A DNA stretch of 22,174 nucleotides from a virus (Duplodnaviria > Heunggongvirae > Uroviricota > Caudoviricetes): the IMG/VR virus record IMGVR_UViG_2675903413_000005; one strand, 5' to 3'. Position numbers and translations under genes: made by a program. Below the pieces are notes generated by a model. The model made no database searches, had not been told where the DNA came from, and worked only from the letters and a program-made list of their open reading frames with translations. Of this stretch, positions 1,659 through 22,174 are shown in pieces (position 1 is the first letter of the stretch; every line of letters starts with the position of its first letter).

Positions 1659-3893
1659 TTAAGAATCAGCCTGACTCGGGATCAGTTTTTGCCAGATAAC
1701 TGAAACGTATTTTGCCTGGTAACGGGCGTCATCAAGTGCATTATGGCGCTCACCTTCGAATGGAATAGCCGTTCTGGCATCGAAGTCTATGGCTTTCCCC
1801 AGCTCAACGATTGTGCGTACATCGCGATCGTTGTAGTAACGCCACGGGCAGGGGATCCCCTGCCGTTCGTATGAACGGCGCAAAATCGTGTTGTCGAAGT
1901 TGGCTCCATTTCCCCAAACCTGAACAAAAAATTCACCGGAGTTTTCGTCGATAAATTCTCGCAATTGTAACAGTGCATCATCTAACGGGATTTCATCGGT
2001 CATAATGGCAGATTGCGCTTCGCGTGATTGCTTAAGCCACCATTTAATGGTGTCCCGATCAATGACTCCGCCAGCAGTTTCCAGATCGATAGTCTTACTA
2101 AATTCCGGTCCCATATCTCCGGTTTGCGGATCGAAAAATATTGCACCTATTGAGATGATCGGGGCATCAGGATTTTTTCCCATGGTTTCAAGGTCGATCA
2201 TTAGATGGTCACACGTCCTGCTGGTGGATGTGATTTCGTGATGACCGTTCACCTTAATTGGGTGATCTGCCGTCTCGCCAGTTTCATTATCGCTATTGTG
2301 ATGCTGATTGCCGCCAGTGTTCTCCTTGTGTGGATGTTCAGCGCCTTCCATTTCCTCCGGATCATCTTCCTGAACTTCAACCTGATACTCTTCATCGAAT
2401 GTTTCTTGGTATGTTGCGTCGCCCATCACCGCGCCACAATCAGGGCAGTTGCCGCCGCCGGTCTGACCGCAGGCGGTGCAGACTTTTTCCACTTCCTGTT
2501 GCGCTACTGGTTCAGGCTGTTTCGTTTCTGGCTCGTTTTGTAACGCATTTGGACTGTTTTGTTCCGCTTTTTGGTAGTTCCGTTCCGATTCATGCTGGTT
2601 CTGGTTCACAGAATCGCGGGTCTGGAGCCCCTTAACCCATTTCGGATCATTCGGGTCACTAATCCCTTCAACAAATTCACCACGTGATGCAGCAAGCAAC
2701 TTATCGGCGTCAGGCTGGCTGATATTGGCTGCCTGCATAATTTTGTTTACTTCGTCAGCGGTAACTTTTATCGGCTCTGGTTGTTCTGAATCTTCAGCGG
2801 TATCTACATTTTGCGGTAAGCCCGTGTATGTGCCATTTTTTCGGGCAAAATATTCTTCTTTTGTGATTTCAGTGGCGCCAGCAGCCAGTGCCTTATCCAG
2901 ACCAGAGAGTTTGTTTGCGCGACCGTATTTTTCTCCGTCCTTATCTGCGAAGAGGAAATAGAACGGCCCCTCACGCTCTACAGATGGTTCAGCTTCCGGC
3001 GCGGTTTCATTTTTTGGGATATCAGATACCTCAGTTTCCACTGCATCAGTTTGTGTTTCTGATGACTGGAGAACATCAACAGTGCCCAGGTCTGTTTCTT
3101 CATTCTCAAACACGCCCTTTGTCGTCAGGTATTCGCAGATATATTTGTTCAGTGCTACGGGATCTTTGTGAATGTCGATCGGACGCTCACGGACAAGGCC
3201 AAAAATAGTTTGGCGGTCGTAGCGAAGGGCATCAGGCTGTTTGCGCATTGATGCCGAGATACGCTTCCAGTCTTCGCGGTCGTTGTCGATAACTTCTTTT
3301 TTTGCCCAGCGATGGATGCTGCCGTCAATGTTTCCGGCATCCACATCACTAGGCCAGAGAGCGTAGGCCAGTTCGTCATCCAGTGTTTTCCATGTCTGCT
3401 TGTATTCGCGATGAATGGCAGCAATGACCGGGCTGATTTTTCCTGTTGAATTTTCAGTGTACTGTTGATTGGCTCTGGCGCGGGCGAGATCAACAACAGA
3501 CGTGTATTTTCCGGTTTCCTTGCGTTCACCTTCGCGACGTTTTTTCCAGATGCGCATCTCTGCCTGAATTTCGGGCCATTTAGCACCAGGAATACATTTA
3601 TGCTTAACCCACCCAATGGCGTGCAACTTAAGCTCCGGATACATGGCGTTAACTTCTGGCATTTTCATCAACGCTTCAACGATATGTCCGTCGAATGTTG
3701 CCATGTCTTCCTGCAACAATTCCTGTGCGCTAATAACCATATCAACGGTGATGTTTTCACATGTGTCGAACTTAACCATGACAGCGTTCTGTACTTCAGG
3801 GGCCAGCTTGTCAAAAGTGACGTTCATCGGATCGGATTCAGTCTCAACCGGGACAAAAGAAGCAGACTCCTCATCCCAGCGGTTTTCCTGCAT
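1659..3893 (-). CDS. Prophage exonuclease with C-terminal DnaQ-like DEDDh 3'-5' exonuclease domain
   Basis: 744-aa ORF; C-terminal motifs MIDLETMG (Exo I), WGNGANFD (Exo II), HNALDDAR (Exo III); central CTACGQTGGGNCPDCG zinc-ribbon-like motif; acidic low-complexity linker. Confidence 0.8.
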   Translation of the reverse strand: MQENRWDEESASFVPVETESDPMNVTFDKLAPEVQNAVMVKFDTCENITVDMVISAQELLQEDMATFDGHIVEALMKMPEVNAMYPELKLHAIGWVKHKCIPGAKWPEIQAEMRIWKKRREGERKETGKYTSVVDLARARANQQYTENSTGKISPVIAAIHREYKQTWKTLDDELAYALWPSDVDAGNIDGSIHRWAKKEVIDNDREDWKRISASMRKQPDALRYDRQTIFGLVRERPIDIHKDPVALNKYICEYLTTKGVFENEETDLGTVDVLQSSETQTDAVETEVSDIPKNETAPEAEPSVEREGPFYFLFADKDGEKYGRANKLSGLDKALAAGATEITKEEYFARKNGTYTGLPQNVDTAEDSEQPEPIKVTADEVNKIMQAANISQPDADKLLAASRGEFVEGISDPNDPKWVKGLQTRDSVNQNQHESERNYQKAEQNSPNALQNEPETKQPEPVAQQEVEKVCTACGQTGGGNCPDCGAVMGDATYQETFDEEYQVEVQEDDPEEMEGAEHPHKENTGGNQHHNSDNETGETADHPIKVNGHHEITSTSRTCDHLMIDLETMGKNPDAPIISIGAIFFDPQTGDMGPEFSKTIDLETAGGVIDRDTIKWWLKQSREAQSAIMTDEIPLDDALLQLREFIDENSGEFFVQVWGNGANFDNTILRRSYERQGIPCPWRYYNDRDVRTIVELGKAIDFDARTAIPFEGERHNALDDARYQAKYVSVIWQKLIPSQADS

Positions 3894-4138
3894 ATATTCA
3901 GCATCCCATGAATCGAGGGCAGGGCGGGGTATGTAATCATTCTGGCAATGCTTAATGCCGCTGCTTTTTCCAGATTGGTGATATCCTGCTCCAGAGCGGA
4001 CAGATTTTCAGCCTGCTTAGCCCTGGCTTCATTAGCCCATTTCAGATCCTGCGCTGCATTAATTTTCTGGCGCATCCACTCATAAAGTTCATCATCGGTA
4101 TAGTCTGGCGCGATGATGACGGGTTCTCGTTTCTGCAT
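3824..4138 (-). CDS. Hypothetical small early protein (3' end uncertain; overlaps the exonuclease start by about 70 nt)
   Basis: ORF beginning MQKREPVIIAPDYTDDELYEWMRQ...; the first ~60 residues look protein-like, the tail is low complexity; a shorter natural product or alternative exonuclease start is possible. Confidence 0.4.
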   Translation of the reverse strand: MQKREPVIIAPDYTDDELYEWMRQKINAAQDLKWANEARAKQAENLSALEQDITNLEKAAALSIARMITYPALPSIHGMLNICRKTAGMRSLLLLSRLRLNPIR

Positions 4139-4167
4139 ACTGATTCCTCGCGGTGCTGTTTCGCTTA

Positions 4168-4296
4168 TCAGCCGTTAGATTTTGCCGAACTGGAAAGCGC
4201 CTGTTTAAACTCACTGAAGCTGAGAGCTTCTTCGCCTTCGGCAAGGCCTTCGAAGTATTCTTCGTAAGCCTTTTCCATGATTGTGTCGAAATCCAT
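4168..4296 (-). CDS. Hypothetical 42-aa acidic protein (below the ORF-track length cut-off)
   Basis: ATG at 4296 preceded by GGTGA Shine-Dalgarno 5 nt upstream; translation MDFDTIMEKAYEEYFEGLAEGEEALSFSEFKQALSSSAKSNG; start lies 1 nt after the stop of the upstream ORF (TGA-T-ATG). The 69-aa ORF 4092..4301 in another frame is low-complexity and likely spurious. Confidence 0.4.
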   Translation of the reverse strand: MDFDTIMEKAYEEYFEGLAEGEEALSFSEFKQALSSSAKSNG

Positions 4297-4297
4297 A

Positions 4298-4453
4298 TCA
4301 CTCACCTGAGTTTCTTTCCAGCCAGCGACGGGCACCATTTTCGGTTTTAAACGTTTTGCTTTTGGTATACGTCATTGCGGTGAACGTGCCGTCCTGGTTT
4401 GGAAACACGCCGTACACCAGAGATTCGTTGTTGCCAAGATCGATAGTATCCAT
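4298..4453 (-). CDS. Hypothetical 51-aa protein
   Basis: ATG at 4453 preceded by TGAGGT Shine-Dalgarno; translation MDTIDLGNNESLVYGVFPNQDGTFTAMTYTKSKTFKTENGARRWLERNSGE. The 83-aa version in the ORF track needs a TTG start without RBS. Confidence 0.45.
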   Translation of the reverse strand: MDTIDLGNNESLVYGVFPNQDGTFTAMTYTKSKTFKTENGARRWLERNSGE

Positions 4454-4507
4454 GCTGACCTCATTTCCCCTTAACGCTGGGGTAACTGGACTGCCTGGGC
4501 CAATGAC

Positions 4508-4732
4508 GTGCGCACAATGCGGATGCTGGATGGCAGAAGCCACAGACAAATTTGCGAAATGTTTGGTCGGGTTCAGCGAGATCCATTCTGGGTAAAAAAC
4601 ATCATGAGCCCGTCAAAGCTCCGCGAAAAATGGGACGAACTGGTCATCCGCCTGGGACGTTCACCTGTACAGCGTTGTGTTAATCATATTTCTGAACCGG
4701 ATACAGAAATTCCGCCTGGTTTCAGAGGATAA
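4508..4732 (+). CDS. Hypothetical 74-aa protein (GTG start; possibly shorter, from ATG 4604)
   Basis: First rightward ORF after the divergent region; no strong RBS; no recognisable motif. Confidence 0.3.
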   Translation: MRTMRMLDGRSHRQICEMFGRVQRDPFWVKNIMSPSKLREKWDELVIRLGRSPVQRCVNHISEPDTEIPPGFRG

Positions 4733-4772
4733 GTGTTGATTTCAGGTCATGAGGTAATTTTAAGGGGGACTT

Positions 4773-6880: not shown

Positions 6881-7186
6881 ATACAGCGAACTCCATTGGT
6901 TTAGTTGGATATTTACTGTGCTGGACAAAAACGGTTTGCGGGGAAATCTTAGTTAAGTAGAATGACTGCGGGTGCTTGAGGCTATCTGCCTCGGGCATGG
7001 ACACCAACGGCAGATAGAGAAAAGCCCCAGTTAACATTACGCGTCCTGCAAGACGCTTAACATTAATCTGAGGCCAATTTCATGCTAGACACATGTAGGT
7101 TAGCCTCTTACGTGCCGAAAGGCACGGAGAAGCAGGCTATTGTTAACACCAAGCTGTAATGTCCCCTTTGAACCATTCTAAAATGT

Positions 7187-7214: not shown

Positions 7215-8528
7215 ATGATCAAAGAGACTGTTACGATGAGTCATAAGGAACTCCACCGACTTCAGATTATTCAGGAACAAGCTGCGGCACGCATTGGCAT
7301 TTCTATTCGGCAGGTTAAACGTCTGGTGCAACGGTATAGAAATGAAGGGCCTTCTGGTCTGGTTTCCCACCGACGTGGAAAGCGTCCTAATAATTCCTTT
7401 TCTACTGAATTCAGAGCAACAGTAATTTCACTCCTCAAAGGCCGTTACGCTGATTTTGGACCTACGTTTGCGTGCGAAAAATTGCGCGAGATACACGGTT
7501 TATCTTTATCCGTTGAAACTCTCAGAAAGTGGATGATAGAAGAGGGGTTATGGCGTGAACGCCGTCGTAAAATTGCCCGTATATATCAACGCCGCATGCG
7601 ACGACCATCTTACGGTGAACTGATCCAGATTGATGGCTCACCTCATGACTGGTTTGAAAATCGAGGCCCCAGATGTACACTGATCGTTTTCATTGATGAT
7701 GCCACCAGTGCGTTGATGGCGTTGCGTTTTGTGCCTGCTGAAACAACCCGGGCTTACATGGAAACCCTCCGGGGTTACCTTAATGATCATGGCGTACCGC
7801 TCGCTCTCTACTCTGATAGACACAGTATATTCAGGGTAAATAACCCAGAGCGGGAAGGTGAGCTGACCCAGTTCACTCGTGCGATAAAGACACTGGGCAT
7901 CGAGCCAATCCATGCCAACAGCCCGCAGGCAAAAGGGCGGGTAGAGCGCGCCAATCAGACACTACAGGACAGGCTGGTCAAAGAAATGCGGCTTCAGAAT
8001 ATCAGTGATATTGAAACAGCAAATGCATGGTTGCCGACCTTTATTGAAGCCTATAACAACCGATTCGCTACGTCGCCTCGTACTACTGATAATGCTCATC
8101 TTGATGTGCACCATTCTGAAGAGGAACTGGGTTATATCTTCAGCCTACAGGCGAAGCGCGTTCTGTCTAAAAATCTCACTTTCCAGTACAAAAGCAGTGC
8201 GTTTCAGGTACGCAGTGAGGGCCGGGGATATCGACTTAGGCATTCGGTTGTTACTGTATGCGAGAACTTTGACGGTGAAATTAACGTTCTGTATGACGGG
8301 AAAGCGCTGGGCTGGGAAAAGTATGTTGATGGCCCGGAGCCTATACCACTGGATGATGAAAAGAGTGTCCATGAACGAGTGGATAATGCCCGTATTGATT
8401 TACGCTCAAAATACTATGTTAAACCTAAAGCTGACCATCCCTGGCTTACGCGCCGAACGCAAAGTCATCAGCAAGTTAAGCCCCCGAAGTTACCTAAAAA
8501 GAAGCCTGATCCCGATAAAAAAGATTGA
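7215..8528 (+). CDS. DDE transposase, rve (integrase-core) superfamily, IS481/ISNCY-like
   Basis: 437-aa ORF; N-terminal HTH-like region; DDE triad in typical context (LIQIDGSPHDW ... LYSDRHSIF ... ANSPQAKGRVERANQTLQDRL); single uninterrupted ORF. Confidence 0.85.
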   Translation: MIKETVTMSHKELHRLQIIQEQAAARIGISIRQVKRLVQRYRNEGPSGLVSHRRGKRPNNSFSTEFRATVISLLKGRYADFGPTFACEKLREIHGLSLSVETLRKWMIEEGLWRERRRKIARIYQRRMRRPSYGELIQIDGSPHDWFENRGPRCTLIVFIDDATSALMALRFVPAETTRAYMETLRGYLNDHGVPLALYSDRHSIFRVNNPEREGELTQFTRAIKTLGIEPIHANSPQAKGRVERANQTLQDRLVKEMRLQNISDIETANAWLPTFIEAYNNRFATSPRTTDNAHLDVHHSEEELGYIFSLQAKRVLSKNLTFQYKSSAFQVRSEGRGYRLRHSVVTVCENFDGEINVLYDGKALGWEKYVDGPEPIPLDDEKSVHERVDNARIDLRSKYYVKPKADHPWLTRRTQSHQQVKPPKLPKKKPDPDKKD

Positions 8529-9829: not shown

Positions 9830-10069
9830 ATGGGTAGCATTAACCTGCGTATTGACGATGAACTTAAAGCGCGTTCTTACGCCGCGCTTGAAAAAATGGG
9901 TGTAACTCCTTCTGAAGCGCTTCGTCTCATGCTCGAGTATATCGCTGACAATGAACGCTTGCCGTTCAAACAGACACTCCTGAGTGATGAAGATGCTGAA
10001 CTTGTGGAGATAGTGAAAGAACGGCTTCGTAATCCTAAGCCAGTACGTGTGACGCTGGATGAACTCTGA
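9830..10069 (+). CDS. relB: RelB antitoxin
   Basis: 79-aa ORF MGSINLRIDDELKARSYAALEKMGVTPSEALRLMLEYIADNERLPFKQ...; stop overlaps the relE start (TGATG). Confidence 0.9.
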   Translation: MGSINLRIDDELKARSYAALEKMGVTPSEALRLMLEYIADNERLPFKQTLLSDEDAELVEIVKERLRNPKPVRVTLDEL

Positions 10070-10356
10070 TGGCGTATTTTCTGGATTTTGACGAGCGGGC
10101 ACTAAAGGAATGGCGAAAGCTGGGCTCGACGGTACGTGAACAGTTGAAAAAGAAGCTGGTTGAAGTACTTGAGTCACCCCGGATTGAAGCAAACAAGCTC
10201 CGTGGTATGCCTGATTGTTACAAGATTAAGCTCCGGTCTTCAGGCTATCGCCTTGTATACCAGGTTATAGACGAGAAAGTTGTCGTTTTCGTGATTTCTG
10301 TTGGGAAAAGAGAACGCTCGGAAGTATATAGCGAGGCGGTCAAACGCATTCTCTGA
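10069..10356 (+). CDS. relE: RelE mRNA-interferase toxin
   Basis: 95-aa ORF MAYFLDFDERALKEWRKLGSTVREQLKKKLVEVLESPRIEANKLRGMPDCYKIKLRSSGYRLVYQVIDEKVVVFVISVGKRERSEVY... Confidence 0.9.
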   Translation: MAYFLDFDERALKEWRKLGSTVREQLKKKLVEVLESPRIEANKLRGMPDCYKIKLRSSGYRLVYQVIDEKVVVFVISVGKRERSEVYSEAVKRIL

Positions 10357-10427: not shown

Positions 10428-10583
10428 ATGAAGCAGCAAAAGGCGATGTTAATCGCCCTGATCGTCATCTGTTTAACCGTCATAGTGACGGCACTGGTAA
10501 CGAGGAAAGACCTCTGCGAGGTACGAATCCGAACCGGCCAGACGGAGGTCGCTGTCTTCACAGCTTACGAACCTGAGGAGTAA
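10428..10583 (+). CDS. hokD: Hok-family membrane toxin HokD (RelF), third gene of the relBE operon
   Basis: 51-aa ORF not in the ORF track: MKQQKAMLIALIVICLTVIVTALVTRKDLCEVRIRTGQTEVAVFTAYEPEE; single transmembrane helix plus conserved Hok C-terminus. Confidence 0.85.
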   Translation: MKQQKAMLIALIVICLTVIVTALVTRKDLCEVRIRTGQTEVAVFTAYEPEE

Positions 10584-10799: not shown

Positions 10800-11516
10800 A
10801 TGATGAACATCGAAGAACTGCGTAAAATTTTTTGTGAAGATGGCCTCTATGCTGTGTGCGTTGAAATGGCAGCGCAGGGGATGGTGAAGTCGAAAGCACC
10901 ACTTGGGTTGGCCTTATTTCTGGCAAAAGTTGGTGTTCAGGACCCTCAGTTTGCGATTGAAGGCCTGCTAAATTACGCGATGGCACTGGATAACCCGACA
11001 TTGAACAAATTGAGTGAAGAAATCCGGTTACAGATTATTCCTTACCTCGTGAGTTTTGCCTTTGCTGATTACTCCAGGTCTGCGGCAAGTAAGGCTCGCT
11101 GTGAGCATTGTTCAGGTACGGGATTTTATAATGTATTGCGCGAAGTGGTGAAACACTACAGACGCGGGGAATCTGTAATCAAGGAAGAATGGGTGAAGGA
11201 ACTATGTCAGCATTGCCATGGTAAGGGCGAAGCCAGCACAGCGTGCAGAGGGTGTAAGGGTAAAGGGATTGTTCTGGATGAAAAAAGAACCCGGTTTCAT
11301 GGCGTACCGGTATATAAGATTTGTGGGCGTTGTAATGGAAACCGGTTTAGTCGTTTACCGACCACGCTGGCACGACGTCATGTCCAGAAGCTGGTACCAG
11401 ACCTGACCGATTATCAGTGGTATAAGGGGTATGCGGACGTCATTGGTAAACTGGTAACAAAGTGCTGGCAGGAAGAAGCATACGCGGAAGCGCAATTGAG
11501 GAAGGTGACGAGATAA
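10800..11516 (+). CDS. Zinc-finger protein in the late-antiterminator (Q) position; four DnaJ-type CxxCxGxG motifs
   Basis: 238-aa ORF with GGAAGGA Shine-Dalgarno; motifs CEHCSGTG, CQHCHGKG, CRGCKGKG, CGRCNGN; lies where quuQ sits in K-12 Qin; followed by a promoter-like element and terminator. Confidence 0.5.
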   Translation: MMNIEELRKIFCEDGLYAVCVEMAAQGMVKSKAPLGLALFLAKVGVQDPQFAIEGLLNYAMALDNPTLNKLSEEIRLQIIPYLVSFAFADYSRSAASKARCEHCSGTGFYNVLREVVKHYRRGESVIKEEWVKELCQHCHGKGEASTACRGCKGKGIVLDEKRTRFHGVPVYKICGRCNGNRFSRLPTTLARRHVQKLVPDLTDYQWYKGYADVIGKLVTKCWQEEAYAEAQLRKVTR

Positions 11517-11937: not shown

Positions 11938-12150
11938 TCATGAAAGGTAAACATTGGCAGCTGAAGGGCCACGCAGACCATTTATCCGGCAAAATTCCAC
12001 GCGTAATCCGGTGGTAATTTCTTCTGCATCGCGGAGATTGAGCGCTGAAACATGAAGCTGGACATCGATACGACCATCGGATGGGGTGATAAGACCCTTG
12101 CCGCTTTTGCCGTCAAAGGTTTTGACAATTCCTGTCATTTTACGGGACAA
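11938..12150 (-). CDS. cspF: Cold-shock-domain protein, CspF/CspH type
   Basis: 70-aa [73 protein letters not shown]. Confidence 0.85.
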
Positions 12151-12450
12151 AAAAATTCCTTAATACTGATAACTTGGCGCACTATACACACGTTCCTGAA
12201 GAAAGCTATAGTTTTTTGATGGGGTTGAAGATGGCTGGATGTCTAAAATAAACATTGCTTCATATGTTCAACTATGCGTTAATGATTGCGTCGGTTTGAA
12301 GAACAGACGATATACGAAGTAGTTTACTAAAGCAGTTCTCATTTCAGGTGTTATTCACTTATTCCTTCTTTGAGTCTCTCCAATTAAGTACGAAGTCGTT
12401 TCTGTTATGCAAACCATTTATGCCGAAAGGCTCAAGTTAAGGAATGTAGA

Positions 12451-12666
12451 ATGTCAAATAAAATGACTGGTTTAGTAAAATGGTTTAACGCTGATAAAGG
12501 TTTCGGCTTTATTTCTCCTGTTGATGGTAGTAAAGATGTGTTTGTGCATTTTTCTGCGATTCAGAATGATAATTATCGAACCTTATTTGAAGGTCAAAAG
12601 GTTACCTTCTCTATAGAGAGTGGTGCTAAAGGTCCTGCAGCAGCAAATGTCATCATTACTGATTAA
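12451..12666 (+). CDS. cspB: Cold-shock protein CspB-like
   Basis: 71-aa [74 protein letters not shown] with RNP motifs; long AT-rich 5' leader (12151-12450). Confidence 0.9.
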
Positions 12667-12947
12667 AATTCATCGCTCGTCTGTATACGATAACGAAGAA
12701 GGCTGATGCCTGAGTAGAGATACGGACAGAGTAGTGAATATTGGATCTCTTTAATAAAAAGTAAGGAGGTCCAATACATGAAACAATGGCTAGCATATTT
12801 GGCAAAATCTTAATCAGGAAAAGTATGCTAACCATTGTGGTGAAGTGCAGGTTTGCTGCATGAATAGTTTTACAGCAGAAGCTAACTGCTGGCATGGCAA
12901 AACAAAGTGCGTAAGTGGATGACTCCCACAAAAAGCACCACAATCTC

Positions 12948-14975: not shown

Positions 14976-15337
14976 GGTAATATTAAATCGGAACATTTAC
15001 ATCGCGGAATGTAAAATTTAAATAAAAAGGACTCTTCCATGAGCCAAAATTCCTGAAATCTTAAGGGTAAGATAAAAGGTCTTAATCAGAATGACACGTT
15101 TTATTAATAAATAAAGCTATTCTTTCATTGCTGTGTTTTTCTTTACAAAAGTAATCCTTGCTATGGGTGGTTAATCATGCGTTAATGGTGTTCTGGTTTG
15201 TTACAAATTTATCTGAAGCAGTCATTGTTATAATTTTATTATTTGTACCTCTTGAGATTTCCTTGTTGGTTTTTCTCTCTGATATTTTTTTTCGGACCAT
15301 TCTGCCCAAGGGCTAATTTCTTCAAAAGGTAATAATT

Positions 15338-15550
15338 ATGTCTAACAAAATGACTGGTTTAGTGAAATGGTTTAACCCTGAAAAAGGTTTTGGTTTCATC
15401 ACGCCGAAAGATGGCAGCAAAGATGTGTTTGTCCATTTCTCAGCAATTCAGAGCAACGATTTCAAAACATTAACTGAGAATCAGGAAGTTGAATTTGGTA
15501 TTGAGAACGGACCTAAAGGTCCTGCCGCTGTTCATGTAGTGGCGCTTTGA
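15338..15550 (+). CDS. cspI: Cold-shock protein CspI-like
   Basis: 70-aa [73 protein letters not shown]; long AT-rich leader (14976-15337). Confidence 0.9.
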
Positions 15551-15754
15551 GGTAGACAATATTACAAACCATATTCACTTTAGATGCCCGTGTTGTCATG
15601 GTTCCCAGTATAGAACATCATCTTTTGATGTTTCTGACATGAATCCTTTCGGGGCAAAATGTATCTTTTGTAAATCAATGATGATTACATTTGATAATAT
15701 TTCACAATACTTAAATGCCAGCCGTCTGTCGTTGGATTTAAAAAAGTGAAAATG

Positions 15755-17016: not shown

Positions 17017-17250
17017 TCAATCTGGTCTGACCTGTTTTCTGAGCAATTCAGTAATGTCACTCTTTTCTTTGTTTGCTTCAGAAGAAACTCTTTTTTCTGA
17101 GCACAGTCTCCGGCGGCAGGCTTCAATGACCCAGGCTGAGAAATTCCCGGACCCTTTTTGCTCAAGAGCGATGTTAATTTGTTCAATCATTTGGTTAGGA
17201 AAGCGGATGTTGCGGGTTGTTGTTCTGCGGGTTCTGTTCTTCGTTGACAT
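17017..17250 (-). CDS. ynfO: YnfO-like small basic protein
   Basis: 77-aa ORF adjacent to the cos region, in the position of ynfO in K-12 Qin. Confidence 0.65.
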   Translation of the reverse strand: MSTKNRTRRTTTRNIRFPNQMIEQINIALEQKGSGNFSAWVIEACRRRLCSEKRVSSEANKEKSDITELLRKQVRPD

Positions 17251-17449
17251 GAGGTTGCCCCGTATTCAGTGTCGCTGATTTGTATTGTCTGAAGTTGTTT
17301 TTACGTTAAGTTGATGCAGATCAATTAATATGATACCTGCGTCATAATTGATTATTTGACGTGGTTTGATGGCGTAGATGCACGTTGTGACATGCAGATG
17401 ATAATTATTATCATTTTGCGGGTCCTTTCCGGCGATCCGACAGGTTACG

Positions 17450-17461
17450 GGGCGGTGACCT
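17450..17461 (+). other. Lambda-type cosN cohesive-end site (GGGCGGTGACCT) with flanking cosQ and cosB
   Basis: Matches the lambda 12-nt cohesive end GGGCGGCGACCT with one substitution; flanks match my recollection of the lambda right end and cosB region upstream of Nu1. Confidence 0.8.
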
Positions 17462-17638
17462 CGCGGGTTTTCGCTATTTATGAAAATTTTCCGGTTTAAG
17501 GCATTTCCGTTCTTCTTCGTCGTAACTTAATGTTTTTATTTAAAATACCCCCTGAAAAGAAAGGAAACGACAGGTGCTGAAAACGAGCTTTTGGGCCTCT
17601 GTCGTTTCCTTTCTCTGTTTTTGGCCGTGGAATGAACA

Positions 17639-18184
17639 ATGGAAGTCAACAAAAAGCAGCTGGCTGACATTTTCGGTGCGAGTATCCGTACCATTCAGAA
17701 CTGGCAGGAACAGGGAATGCCCGTTCTGCGAGGCGGTGGCAAGGGTAATGAGGTGCTTTATGACTCTGCCGCCGTTATAAGATGGTATGCCGAAAGGGAT
17801 GCTGAAATTGAGAACGAAAAGCTGCGCCGGGAAGTTGAAGAACTGCGGCAGGCCAGCGAGACAGATCTCCAGCCAGGGACTATTGAGTACGAACGCCATC
17901 GACTTACGCGTGCGCAGGCCGACGCACAGGAGCTGAAAAATGCCAGAGACTCCGCTGAAGTGGTGGAAACCGCATTCTGTACTTTCGTGCTGTCGCGGAT
18001 CGCAGGTGAAATTGCCAGTATTCTCGACGGGATCCCCCTGTCGGTGCAGCGGCGTTTTCCGGAACTGGAAAACCGACATGTTGATTTCCTGAAACGGGAT
18101 ATCATCAAAGCCATGAACAAAGCAGCCGCGCTGGATGAACTGATACCGGGGTTGCTGAGTGAATATATCGAACAGTCAGGTTAA
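17639..18184 (+). CDS. nu1: Terminase small subunit Nu1 (lambda-type)
   Basis: 181-aa ORF MEVNKKQLADIFGASIRTIQNWQEQGMPVLRGGGKGNEVLYDSAAV..., near-identical to lambda Nu1 as recalled; sits immediately downstream of cos. Confidence 0.95.
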   Translation: MEVNKKQLADIFGASIRTIQNWQEQGMPVLRGGGKGNEVLYDSAAVIRWYAERDAEIENEKLRREVEELRQASETDLQPGTIEYERHRLTRAQADAQELKNARDSAEVVETAFCTFVLSRIAGEIASILDGIPLSVQRRFPELENRHVDFLKRDIIKAMNKAAALDELIPGLLSEYIEQSG

Positions 18185-19642
18185 CAGGCTGCGGCATTTT
18201 GTCCGCGCCGGGCTTCGCTCACTGTTCAGGCCGGAGCCACAGACCGCCGTTGAATGGGCGGATGCTAATTACTATCTCCCGAAAGAATCCGCATACCAGG
18301 AAGGGCGCTGGGAAACACTGCCCTTTCAGCGGGCCATCATGAATGCGATGGGCAGCGACTACATCCGTGAGGTGAATGTGGTGAAGTCTGCCCGTGTCGG
18401 TTATTCCAAAATGCTGCTGGGTGTTTATGCCTACTTTATAGAGCATAAGCAGCGCAACACCCTTATCTGGTTGCCGACGGATGGTGATGCCGAGAACTTT
18501 ATGAAAACCCACGTTGAGCCGACCATCCGCGATATTCCGTCGCTGCTGGCGCTGGCTCCGTGGTATGGCAAAAAGCACCGGGATAACACGCTCACTATGA
18601 AGCGTTTTTCCAATGGTCGTGGCTTCTGGTGCCTGGGCGGTAAAGCGGCAAAAAACTACCGTGAAAAGTCGGTGGATGTGGCGGGTTATGATGAACTTGC
18701 TGCCTTTGATGAGGATATTGAACAGGAAGGCTCTCCGACGTTCCTTGGCGACAAACGTTTGAAGGCTCGGTCTGGCCAAAGTCCATCCGTGGCTCCACGC
18801 CCAAAGTGAGAGGCACCTGCCAGATTGAGCGTGCAGCCAGTGAATCCCTGCATTTTATGCGTTTTCATGTTGCCTGCCCGCACTGCGGGGAGGAGCAGTA
18901 TCTTAAATTTGGCGACAAAGAGACGCCGTTTGGCCTCAAATGGACGCCGGATGACCCCTCCAGCGTGTTTTATCTCTGCGAGCATAATGCCTGCGTCATC
19001 CGCCAGCAGGAGCTGGACTTTACTGATGCCCGTTATATCTGCGAAAAGACCGGGATCTGGACCCGTGATGGCATTCTCTGGTTTTCGTCATCCGGTGAAG
19101 AGATTGAGCCGCCGGACAGTGTGACCTTTCACATCTGGACGGCGTACAGCCCGTTCACCACCTGGGTGCAGATTGTCAAAGACTGGATGAAGACGAAAGG
19201 GGATACGGGAAAACGTAAAACCTTCGTGAACACCACGCTCGGTGAGACATGGGAAGCGAAAATCGGCGAACGTCCGGATGCTGAGGTGATGGCGGAGCGG
19301 AAAGAGCATTATTCAGCGCCCGTTCCTGACCGTGTGGCTTACCTGACCGCCGGTATCGACTCCCAGCTGGACCGCTACGAAATGCGCGTATGGGGATGGG
19401 GGCCGGGTGAGGAAAGCTGGCTGATTGACCGGCAGATTATTATGGGTCGCCACGACGATGAACAGACGCTGCTGCGTGTGGATGAGGCCATCAATAAAAC
19501 CTATACCCGCCGGAATGGTGCAGAAATGTCGGTATCCCGTATCTGCTGGGATACTGGCGGGATTGACCCGACCATTGTGTATGAACGCTCGAAAAAACAT
19601 GGGCTGTTCCGGGTGATCCCCATTAAAGGGGCATCCGTCTAA
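18159..19642 (+). pseudogene. A: Terminase large subunit A, N-terminal ~495 codons; frameshifted near 18759 and truncated at an inversion junction near 19640
   Basis: Two consecutive ORFs (18159..18809 and 18806..19642) together read as continuous lambda gpA sequence; the first leaves the gpA frame after GDKR; the second ends ...IPIKGASV at a TAA. Confidence 0.9.
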
Positions 19643-19950
19643 TGCCGTTGTAACCGGTCATCCCCGAGTACGGCTGCAGCGCCCGCGTCCGGCTGACCAG
19701 CGTGCCGGACACCGGCAGCACGGCGATGCCGTTCATGACCTGATAACTGCGGGCCTGTCGTGGTCCGTCATCATCACCGGATAATGCCAGCGTCGCGAGT
19801 GCCTCCTGGGCAGTCAGGCTGTCGCCGGACACCGCATCCGTCAGGCGGCTGATCCCAAGCTGGCCTGCAAGCGCACAAAAGAAAACCCGCGCATAGGCGG
19901 GTTCAAGCATCAGCGGCTCATTAAAAGCCATGCTGGCAATATGCGGGAGA

Positions 19951-19970
<20 letters not shown>
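19623..19970 (-). pseudogene. C: Capsid assembly protease C, N-terminal fragment (about 110 codons) ending at the inversion junction
   Basis: GTG start at 19970; MTAELRNLPHIASMAFNEPLMLEPAYARVFFCALAGQ... as in lambda gpC through ...MTGYNGI, then 5 unrelated codons (antisense of A) and a stop. Confidence 0.85.

Positions 19971-22174
<2,204 letters not shown>

Follow-up and report, generated by a model that had tools for sequence, protein, structure and literature searches.

Terminase of phage lambda packages DNA in one direction: the enzyme binds cosB, nicks cosN, stays on the cosB end and translocates it, the cosQ-side end is exposed to nucleases, and termination needs a downstream cosQ-cosN (PMC4669245, PMC4856287). 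At a prophage cos of the helper's specificity the outcome is a filled, stalled particle that is tailless and non-infectious (PMC4669245, section 18). Defective prophages of Escherichia coli K-12 are not excised during lambda infection, and the documented route of cargo into helper phages is cos-stimulated homologous recombination, not packaging of the element (De Paepe 2014, PMC3945230). In crosses of lambda with the defective prophage DLP12, for example, recombinants were ~100-fold more frequent than those formed via Qin/Rac tail-fibre homologies, about half of the recombinant junctions lay beside cos, and nohD of DLP12 replaced nu1 in viable lambda recombinants, where it functions as the small terminase subunit, TerS (PMC3945230). 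Here we analyzed a stretch of 22,174 nucleotides (IMG/VR record IMGVR_UViG_2675903413_000005; hereafter the window) that carries a lambda-type cos and the TerS gene nohA. We consider it probable that this region is the packaging origin (cosQ-cosN-I2-cosB) and nohA of a copy of the cryptic prophage Qin in mid-decay, a very recent descendant of a phage of the PhiR42_1 type.

We identify the window as a copy of Qin, a lambdoid cryptic prophage of E. coli, by its match to the rspB/ydfJ insertion site (the flanks of which lie outside the window) and by the gene order dic, relBE-hokD, csp, lysis, nohA. The closest complete genome was that of E. coli N61, whose rspB/ydfJ locus is ~100% identical to the window with five point differences in 17.7 kb; the locus was also matched in K-12, EcE.CRE.COL and LR-03, and identity to the Qin of K-12 MG1655 was ~99.8% over the 7.3 kb up to nohA. 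Across cos, positions 17088-19641 are colinear with lambda 48141-48502 plus 1-2194, with 64 small differences. PhiR42_1 (GenBank PV340562.1, 48,668 bp) is a complete Qin-type lambdoid phage genome that, outside the deletions, is at least 99.9% identical to the window over the shared parts, and the Int (431 aa) and Xis (83 aa) proteins of the window are identical to those of PhiR42_1. Over 17300-19641 only two differences from PhiR42_1 were found, a C to T change at base 7 of cosN (C7T) and a frameshift in gpA; these are also two of the five point differences from N61, and are recent mutations private to the strain, or possibly sequencing errors. The same locus is occupied in other strains by a nearly complete prophage, which has an intact large terminase subunit (TerL) and an identical NohA protein.

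The gene order of PhiR42_1 is int, xis, exoVIII, ydfD, dicA/dicC, an O-like gene, flxA, relBE, hokD, rem, ydfU, Q, cspF and cspB, followed by the lysis genes, cspI, ynfN, gnsB, ydfO, ynfO, cos, nu1, A through J, lom, stf, tfa, pinQ and ydfK. The cargo genes to the left of its cos (relBE, hokD, cspF, cspB, cspI, gnsB and ydfO) stand in the same order in the window. With ydfK also present in PhiR42_1, Qin has full-length relatives that carry the same cargo. A literature search for a paper describing the PhiR phages found none that was usable.

The subsites of cos were mapped with the coordinates of the Feiss laboratory (PMC4669245, PMC9026076, PMC4856287). A composite cosQ-N21-cosN pattern had a single match in the window and no match in 100 shuffles. 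By both coordinate mapping and pattern match, the packaging-termination signal cosQ (GGGTCCT) lies at 17420-17426 on the plus strand, equivalent to lambda 48473-48479, exact coordinates that we take to be those of Wieczorek and Feiss (2001), and it ends 23 bp before the cohesive-end sequence, which is the lambda spacing. The stretch equivalent to lambda 48472-48485 is unchanged, with nearby differences at 48467, 48471 and 48486, which are also present in the phage genomes PhiR42_1, Kati and 2H10. With its flanking CG dinucleotides, both of which are kept, cosN occupies 17448-17463 on the plus strand; its 12-base cohesive ends, GGGCGGTGACCT at 17450-17461, match 11 of the 12 bases of lambda GGGCGGCGACCT, the difference being C7 to T at 17456. 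The intrinsically bent spacer I2, which is needed for initiation, is identical to lambda (17467-17499, plus strand; lambda bp 18-50), and lambda bp 8-53 are identical in the window with no insertion or deletion, so that the cosN-to-cosB spacing is unaltered; the definition of I2, its essential bp 30-35 and the spacing requirement are those of PMC4856287.

All parts of cosB are likewise present. R3, the critical TerS binding site (17499-17514, plus strand; lambda bp 50-65), carries G54 to A at 17503 with bp 55-65 unchanged. Since TerS contacts bp 55-63 of R3 and mutations matter at bp 56, 58 and 59 (PMC9026076), G54A falls just outside the contact segment, and it is common to PhiR42_1 and the Qin of K-12. 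Between R3 and R2, the core of I1 is a match to the integration host factor (IHF) consensus, AATAAAAACATTA, at 17528-17540 on the minus strand, with the same bases as lambda 79-91; from R3 to R2 only bp 73 and 102 differ from lambda, both outside this match, and both variants are common to deposited phage genomes. The inverted TerS binding site R2 (17558-17573, minus strand) and the TerS binding site R1 (17599-17614, plus strand) are exact 16-mers. The site is thus of the lambda type, with three R sequences of lambda specificity and an IHF site between R3 and R2. From cosQ to the start of nohA (lambda 48473 to bp 190), the window departs from lambda at 48486, cosN bp 7, and bp 54, 73, 102, 134, 138 (a 1-bp deletion), 145 and 176; just ahead of cosQ it also differs at 48467 and 48471. 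Apart from cosN bp 7, every one of these variants is common to PhiR42_1, and most are also found in phages Kati and 2H10 (none in all three) or in the Qin of K-12, where the bases upstream of cosN are those of lambda. R3 bp 55-63 with its positions 56, 58 and 59, the critical segment of I2, the core of the IHF match, R2 and R1 are free of differences.

The TerS gene nohA (17639-18184, plus strand) is full length at 181 aa, as supported by Pfam, PDB matches and annotation. Its product matches Pfam Phage_Nu1 (PF07471) with E = 2.4e-101 over profile positions 1-164 of 164, its residues 1-98 match PDB 6HN7, and its residues 1-68 match 1J9I, the Nu1 DNA-binding domain. Only K48R, A75T and L132I distinguish NohA from lambda Nu1, and the recognition helix (17-24) and wing (31-39) are unchanged. 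In N61, EcE.CRE.COL and LR-03 the gene is annotated nohA (WP_000453611.1, DNA-packaging protein). Because nohA is nucleotide-identical to nu1 of PhiR42_1, and hence encodes the same protein, an assessment of selection on nohA from substitution patterns was rejected; its 3 non-synonymous and 5 synonymous differences from lambda nu1 represent divergence between phages, not evolution in the cryptic state. Antisense to nohA lies a 179-aa open reading frame (ORF; 17540-18079, minus strand), which recurs in both of the IMG/VR contigs that carry the T7 form of cosN (see below). Conservation of the nohA sequence is the likeliest reason for the recurrence, and there is no evidence of a gene.

Whereas cos and nohA are complete, an intact single-frame gpA (TerL) of 641 aa with ATPase, nuclease and portal-binding functions is absent. 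The N-terminal fragment (18159-18809, plus strand) holds residues 1-200 in frame, including the Walker A motif at residue 76, followed by 16 out-of-frame codons and a stop; the frame is lost through a 1-nt deletion (lambda bp 1311, window 18758/18759). Residues 217-494 continue in a shifted frame at 18806-19641 on the plus strand up to an inversion junction at lambda 2194, after which inverted lambda 4748 to 2214 is joined. On the minus strand, this block comprises a 5' fragment of gene C (an S49 peptidase; lambda 4748-4418) at 19640-19970, the left junction having a shared TA at 19640-19641, an intact 533-aa ORF for portal gene B at 19951-21552, the 68-aa head-tail joining gene W at 21549-21755, and the C-terminal fragment of gpA at 21752-22174, of which residues 502-641 are in the window and which runs past the window end; the C-terminal part of gpA is thus inverted 2.1 kb away. 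In N61 the inverted block runs to lambda 2193 and then abuts an stf fragment (~lambda 21370), tfaQ and pinQ. The history is a C-to-stf deletion plus a reciprocal and conservative inversion of lambda 2194-4748 in which no base was lost or gained. The inversion junction occurs in two of 5426 complete E. coli genomes (N61 and LR-03). A TA dinucleotide is present at every crossover of the inversion and the C-to-stf deletion, including N61 locus 37137-37138. With pinQ just downstream, inversion by the neighbouring PinQ invertase was a candidate; it was dropped since no hix- or gix-like 26-mer with up to 9 mismatches was found at the junctions or the parental lambda sites.

An earlier note on this DNA had described a cosN one substitution away from that of lambda, preserved cosQ and cosB flanks, a full-length Nu1, and a gpA both frameshifted and split by the inversion, and every part of this description was borne out by the mapping. 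It had also named cosB mutations in the Nu1-binding sites as an argument against packaging; in the comparison of the cosN 12-mer and the R sites with lambda, the R sites differ by G54A of R3 only, and none of the observed differences sits at a TerS contact or mutation-sensitive base.

The remainder of the element is decaying. Compared with PhiR42_1, the window lacks four segments, on the ydfD/dicB side, from dicA/dicC to the 5' part of the O-like gene, from rem to the 5' part of Q, and from C' to stf, and so the O-like replication gene, the immunity region (dicA/dicC) and Q are truncated. Deletion junctions at 3927-3933 and 4483-4484, placed by comparison with N61 and PhiR42_1, have overlaps of 7 bp and 2 bp, and one of these deletions extends into the O-like gene, taking dicA, dicC and a YdaT/cII-like gene with it; the Qin immunity and division-inhibitor region is gone in the strain of the window. 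A 1.7-kb deletion at 10862-10869, common to N61, takes rem and ydfU together with the 5' portion of Q, the antiterminator gene. Because Q is truncated, expression of the late operon, including nohA, is doubtful. In N61 the element measures ~28.3 kb between terminal 11-bp direct repeats, and a further 1240 and 1693 bp are missing in the strain of the window, which gives an estimate of ~25.4 kb. LR-03 has the inversion and is without int, xis, the lysis genes, cspF, cspB and cspI. K-12, N61, LR-03 and the window thus each carry different further deletions, and decay is ongoing and differs between strains.

Since the events in the morphogenetic region (the C-to-stf deletion, the inversion and the 1-nt deletion in A) all lie to the right of cos and nohA, these two are still present, and there is no evidence here for their retention for a function. 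Independent deletions of the head and tail genes start at nohA codon 176 in the Qin of K-12, ~100 codons into A in the DLP12 of K-12, and in C in the N61 type; on the right all three end in stf/tfa, and on the left they leave cos untouched and nu1 whole or largely so. This shared pattern could reflect chance, a deletion hot spot or selection.

What would a helper make of this cos? What was established directly is the anatomy of the region, how its packaging direction lies with respect to the cargo, that the closest genome has one cos, and how far the element has decayed; our view of cleavage combines the sequence with published genetics (PMC4669245, PMC9026076, PMC4856287). Because every part of cos is present and the bases that are known to count for binding by terminase or IHF are all unchanged, recognition and cutting in trans are likely; for the T7 site itself, we would expect with good confidence that a terminase of lambda specificity cleaves it. 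Nu1 is not needed in cis for packaging in trans. TerS dimers and IHF would assemble on R3-I1-R2, and TerL would nick cosN. Terminase would then stay on the nu1 side and move right through A', the inverted B-W, tfaQ, pinQ and ydfK into ydfJ and the flanking chromosome, and on the N61 layout packaging would go on towards the mar and lsr loci. Without a downstream cos, the head would fill and stall, giving a tailless, non-infectious particle. The free cosQ-side end, bearing ynfO, ydfO, gnsB, cspI and the rest of the cargo, would be recombinogenic and could pass to related phages by homologous exchange. Kotani et al. are said to have reported, in Nucleic Acids Res in 1992, cutting of K-12 cryptic-prophage cos sites by lambda terminase, an account that is not used as evidence here.

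The position of the cargo matters for this outcome. relBE (~9830-10356), hokD (10428-10583), cspF (11938-12150), cspB (12451-12666) and cspI (15338-15550) all lie below 17450, on the cosQ side, and because lambda packaging runs from cosN into nu1, the cargo is on the side that is not packaged. A locus that a helper can package would have two cos sites in the same orientation, ~38-51 kb apart; the window holds one, and in 117 kb of N61 centred on the locus, taken as proxy, only one cos-like site was found (up to 3 mismatches in a 17-mer), with no second within 58 kb on either side. Lambda packages between a lower limit of ~78% of its length for stable particles and an upper limit of ~105%, and an element of 25-28 kb is 52-58% of the lambda length, under the lower limit. 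The suggestion of the earlier note that a lambda-like helper could recognise and package the element in trans therefore survives for recognition and cutting, which are likely from sequence and published genetics, but does not extend to productive packaging, for which a single cos would lead to a dead-end particle. Its further proposal that packaging would carry the toxin and cold-shock cargo along is not supported, the cargo lying opposite to the packaging direction in an element that has a single cos in N61 and is under the lower size limit.

The strongest alternative is that cos is dead, with C7 to T, alone or together with G54A, blocking nicking and leaving an inert fossil that no longer interacts with a helper. 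A 41-mer centred on cosN was found in its C7 form at 8380 places in 4474 complete E. coli genomes and in its T7 form in one of 5426 (EC12); in IMG/VR, two contigs have the T7 form and at least 120 the C7 form. GenBank phage records gave no match to the T7 41-mer, a weak negative, since records that start at cos cannot hold the junction, and the private frameshift in A of the same strain is consistent with relaxed constraint. Against this stand the published genetics: many mutations at cosN bp 7-12 have hardly any effect, these bases often vary in nature (N15 differs at bp 9 and 12, and Gifsy-1 at 8, 9 and 11), and lambda terminase cleaves the cosN of N15 as well as its own (PMC4669245). G54A, for its part, is shared with PhiR42_1 and lies outside the TerS contacts (PMC9026076). 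In the two IMG/VR contigs, one of which has a Qin-like late region, the T7 form also neighbours nu1 (181 aa), A (641 aa) and B (533 aa), all intact, and in EC12 it belongs to an apparently complete prophage with intact terminase and portal genes. A dead cos is therefore unlikely.

It is very unlikely that the locus is a cos-type satellite, whose whole length, with its toxin and cold-shock genes, a helper terminase would package into infectious particles. A structurally complete cos, Int and Xis identical to those of PhiR42_1, and the mobilization of E. coli phage-inducible chromosomal islands (PICIs) with cos by lambda and phi80 (PMC6092414) would fit such a satellite, as would the length of two ~25.4-kb units, which at ~50.8 kb is just inside the ~105% limit of lambda. 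However, packaging polarity points away from the cargo (PMC4669245, PMC4856287), there is a single cos in the chromosomal context, one unit falls short of a stable particle, and the truncated O-like gene, dicA/dicC region and Q make concatemers unlikely. Moreover, the annotation of the N61 locus contains no AlpA, primase-replicase (pri-rep) with an origin of replication, or Rpp, the genes by which PICIs and cos satellites are recognised, and K-12 defective prophages were not excised on lambda infection (PMC3945230). Too small a size, truncated genes for replication and late regulation, and the absence of cos-type PICI modules together make packaging of the whole element unlikely. A more specific form of this idea, that the element still travels as a unit, would have a related helper excise the ~25.4 kb, helper or host recombination join copies, and two units be packed cos-to-cos, moving relBE, hokD and the csp genes, with the retention of cos-nu1 in Qin- and DLP12-type relics being selection for residual mobility. 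We regard this as a long shot; if true, it would mean that decaying prophages keep a satellite-like escape route.

It is likewise very unlikely that cos-nohA, perhaps with the N-terminal fragment of gpA, is itself selected, whether as a decoy or interference module by which the terminase of a superinfecting lambdoid phage would be diverted or poisoned, or as a handle for recombination to the benefit of the host or the element: cos-nu1 does survive in the Qin and DLP12 of K-12, N61, LR-03 and the window despite independent deletions just to its right, initiation at a prophage cos wastes proheads (Feiss et al., PMC4669245), and the 216-aa gpA fragment keeps the N-terminal TerS-binding part (PMC9026076), but nohA, identical to the phage gene, carries no readable signal of selection in the cryptic state, one to few chromosomal cos sites would face phage genomes in the hundreds, both the cosN change and the frameshift look like decay and are private, the C-terminus of K-12 NohA (its TerL-binding end) has been replaced by junction sequence, and late expression with a truncated Q is doubtful.

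Several points nevertheless weigh against our preferred reading, that this is the packaging origin of a recently descended and decaying Qin whose cos a helper would cut to no productive end. The predominance of C7 could reflect constraint rather than shared descent. The genetics of PMC4669245 find many, not all, right-half cosN changes harmless, and we know of no tested case of C7 to T itself. We infer the behaviour of this cos by extending to it, from its sequence, what has been published for lambda and DLP12. PhiR42_1 may be a viable phage, a status that is taken from its GenBank record, and the right end of the element and its chromosomal surroundings lie outside the window and were read from N61. 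Finally, that cos-nu1 is kept in the Qin and DLP12 of K-12, in N61 and in LR-03, with deletions repeatedly stopping just to its right, leaves some room for selection.

Two further observations concern other parts of the window. An Rfam match to the sok antitoxin RNA (104 bits; 6970-7141, plus strand) lies ~3.3 kb from hokD and just upstream of an ISNCY transposase fragment (7215-8528), which suggests a second, unannotated hok/sok-type locus or its remnant. In addition, Rfam matches to the cspA thermoregulator 5' untranslated region at 12290-12682 and 15192-15577 (plus strand) lie upstream of cspB and cspI, and the prophage cold-shock genes retain the cold-responsive leader.

Compared with known systems, the relic is of a familiar kind and lies in a known prophage, as nohA and the Qin cos are annotated features, and the outcomes of a lone prophage cos meeting a helper (dead-end packaging and cos-adjacent recombination) are already described. 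The Qin of K-12 (nohA, b1548) shares the rspB/ydfJ site, the order relBE-hokD ... cspF-cspB-lysis-cspI-gnsB-ydfO-ynfO-cos-nohA, and the cos variants G54A and bp 73, 102, 134, 145 and 176. It differs in having the canonical C7, a deletion from nohA codon 176 (a 189-aa fusion) that takes all of A, W, B and C, and an int pseudogene, whereas the window has intact int and xis, 494 codons of A and the inverted C'-B-W-'A block and is without dicB and dicA/dicC. PhiR42_1 has a canonical cosN, an intact A and the full head and tail module, while the window has the four deletions, the inversion, C7T and the A frameshift. With the same cargo on this complete 48.7-kb phage genome, the spread of the cargo can be explained without a satellite-like mechanism.

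The cos-nohD region of K-12 DLP12 is similar as a defective lambdoid prophage that keeps R/Rz-cos-nu1 and a stub of A, and in experiments it gave frequent recombination with infecting lambda, the junctions clustering at cos, and its nu1 works in lambda (PMC3945230); it is a different prophage at a different locus, with the R3 variant C53T and R70L of NohD in place of K48R. In tandem dilysogens of lambda, a repressed chromosomal cos is likewise used in trans by a helper terminase of matching specificity (passive-prophage helper packaging, PMC4669245), but there two cos sites of the same orientation lie one genome length apart, and the single cos of this locus would lead to a dead end. Finally, cos-type PICIs (for example, EcCICFT073 with Rpp) share an integrase, a lambda-like cosQ-cosN and dependence on a helper virion (PMC6092414, PMC9026076), but lack a lambda cosB and any phage lysis or structural genes, retarget TerS through Rpp, are induced under AlpA control, have their own primase-replicase and origin, and are about one third the size of the helper. 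The window, by contrast, has a genuine cosB and TerS, none of those modules, a lysis cassette, portal and W genes, and an estimated size of 25-28 kb. These results matter little beyond bookkeeping, although they clarify that packaging from this cos would leave the toxin and cold-shock genes behind.

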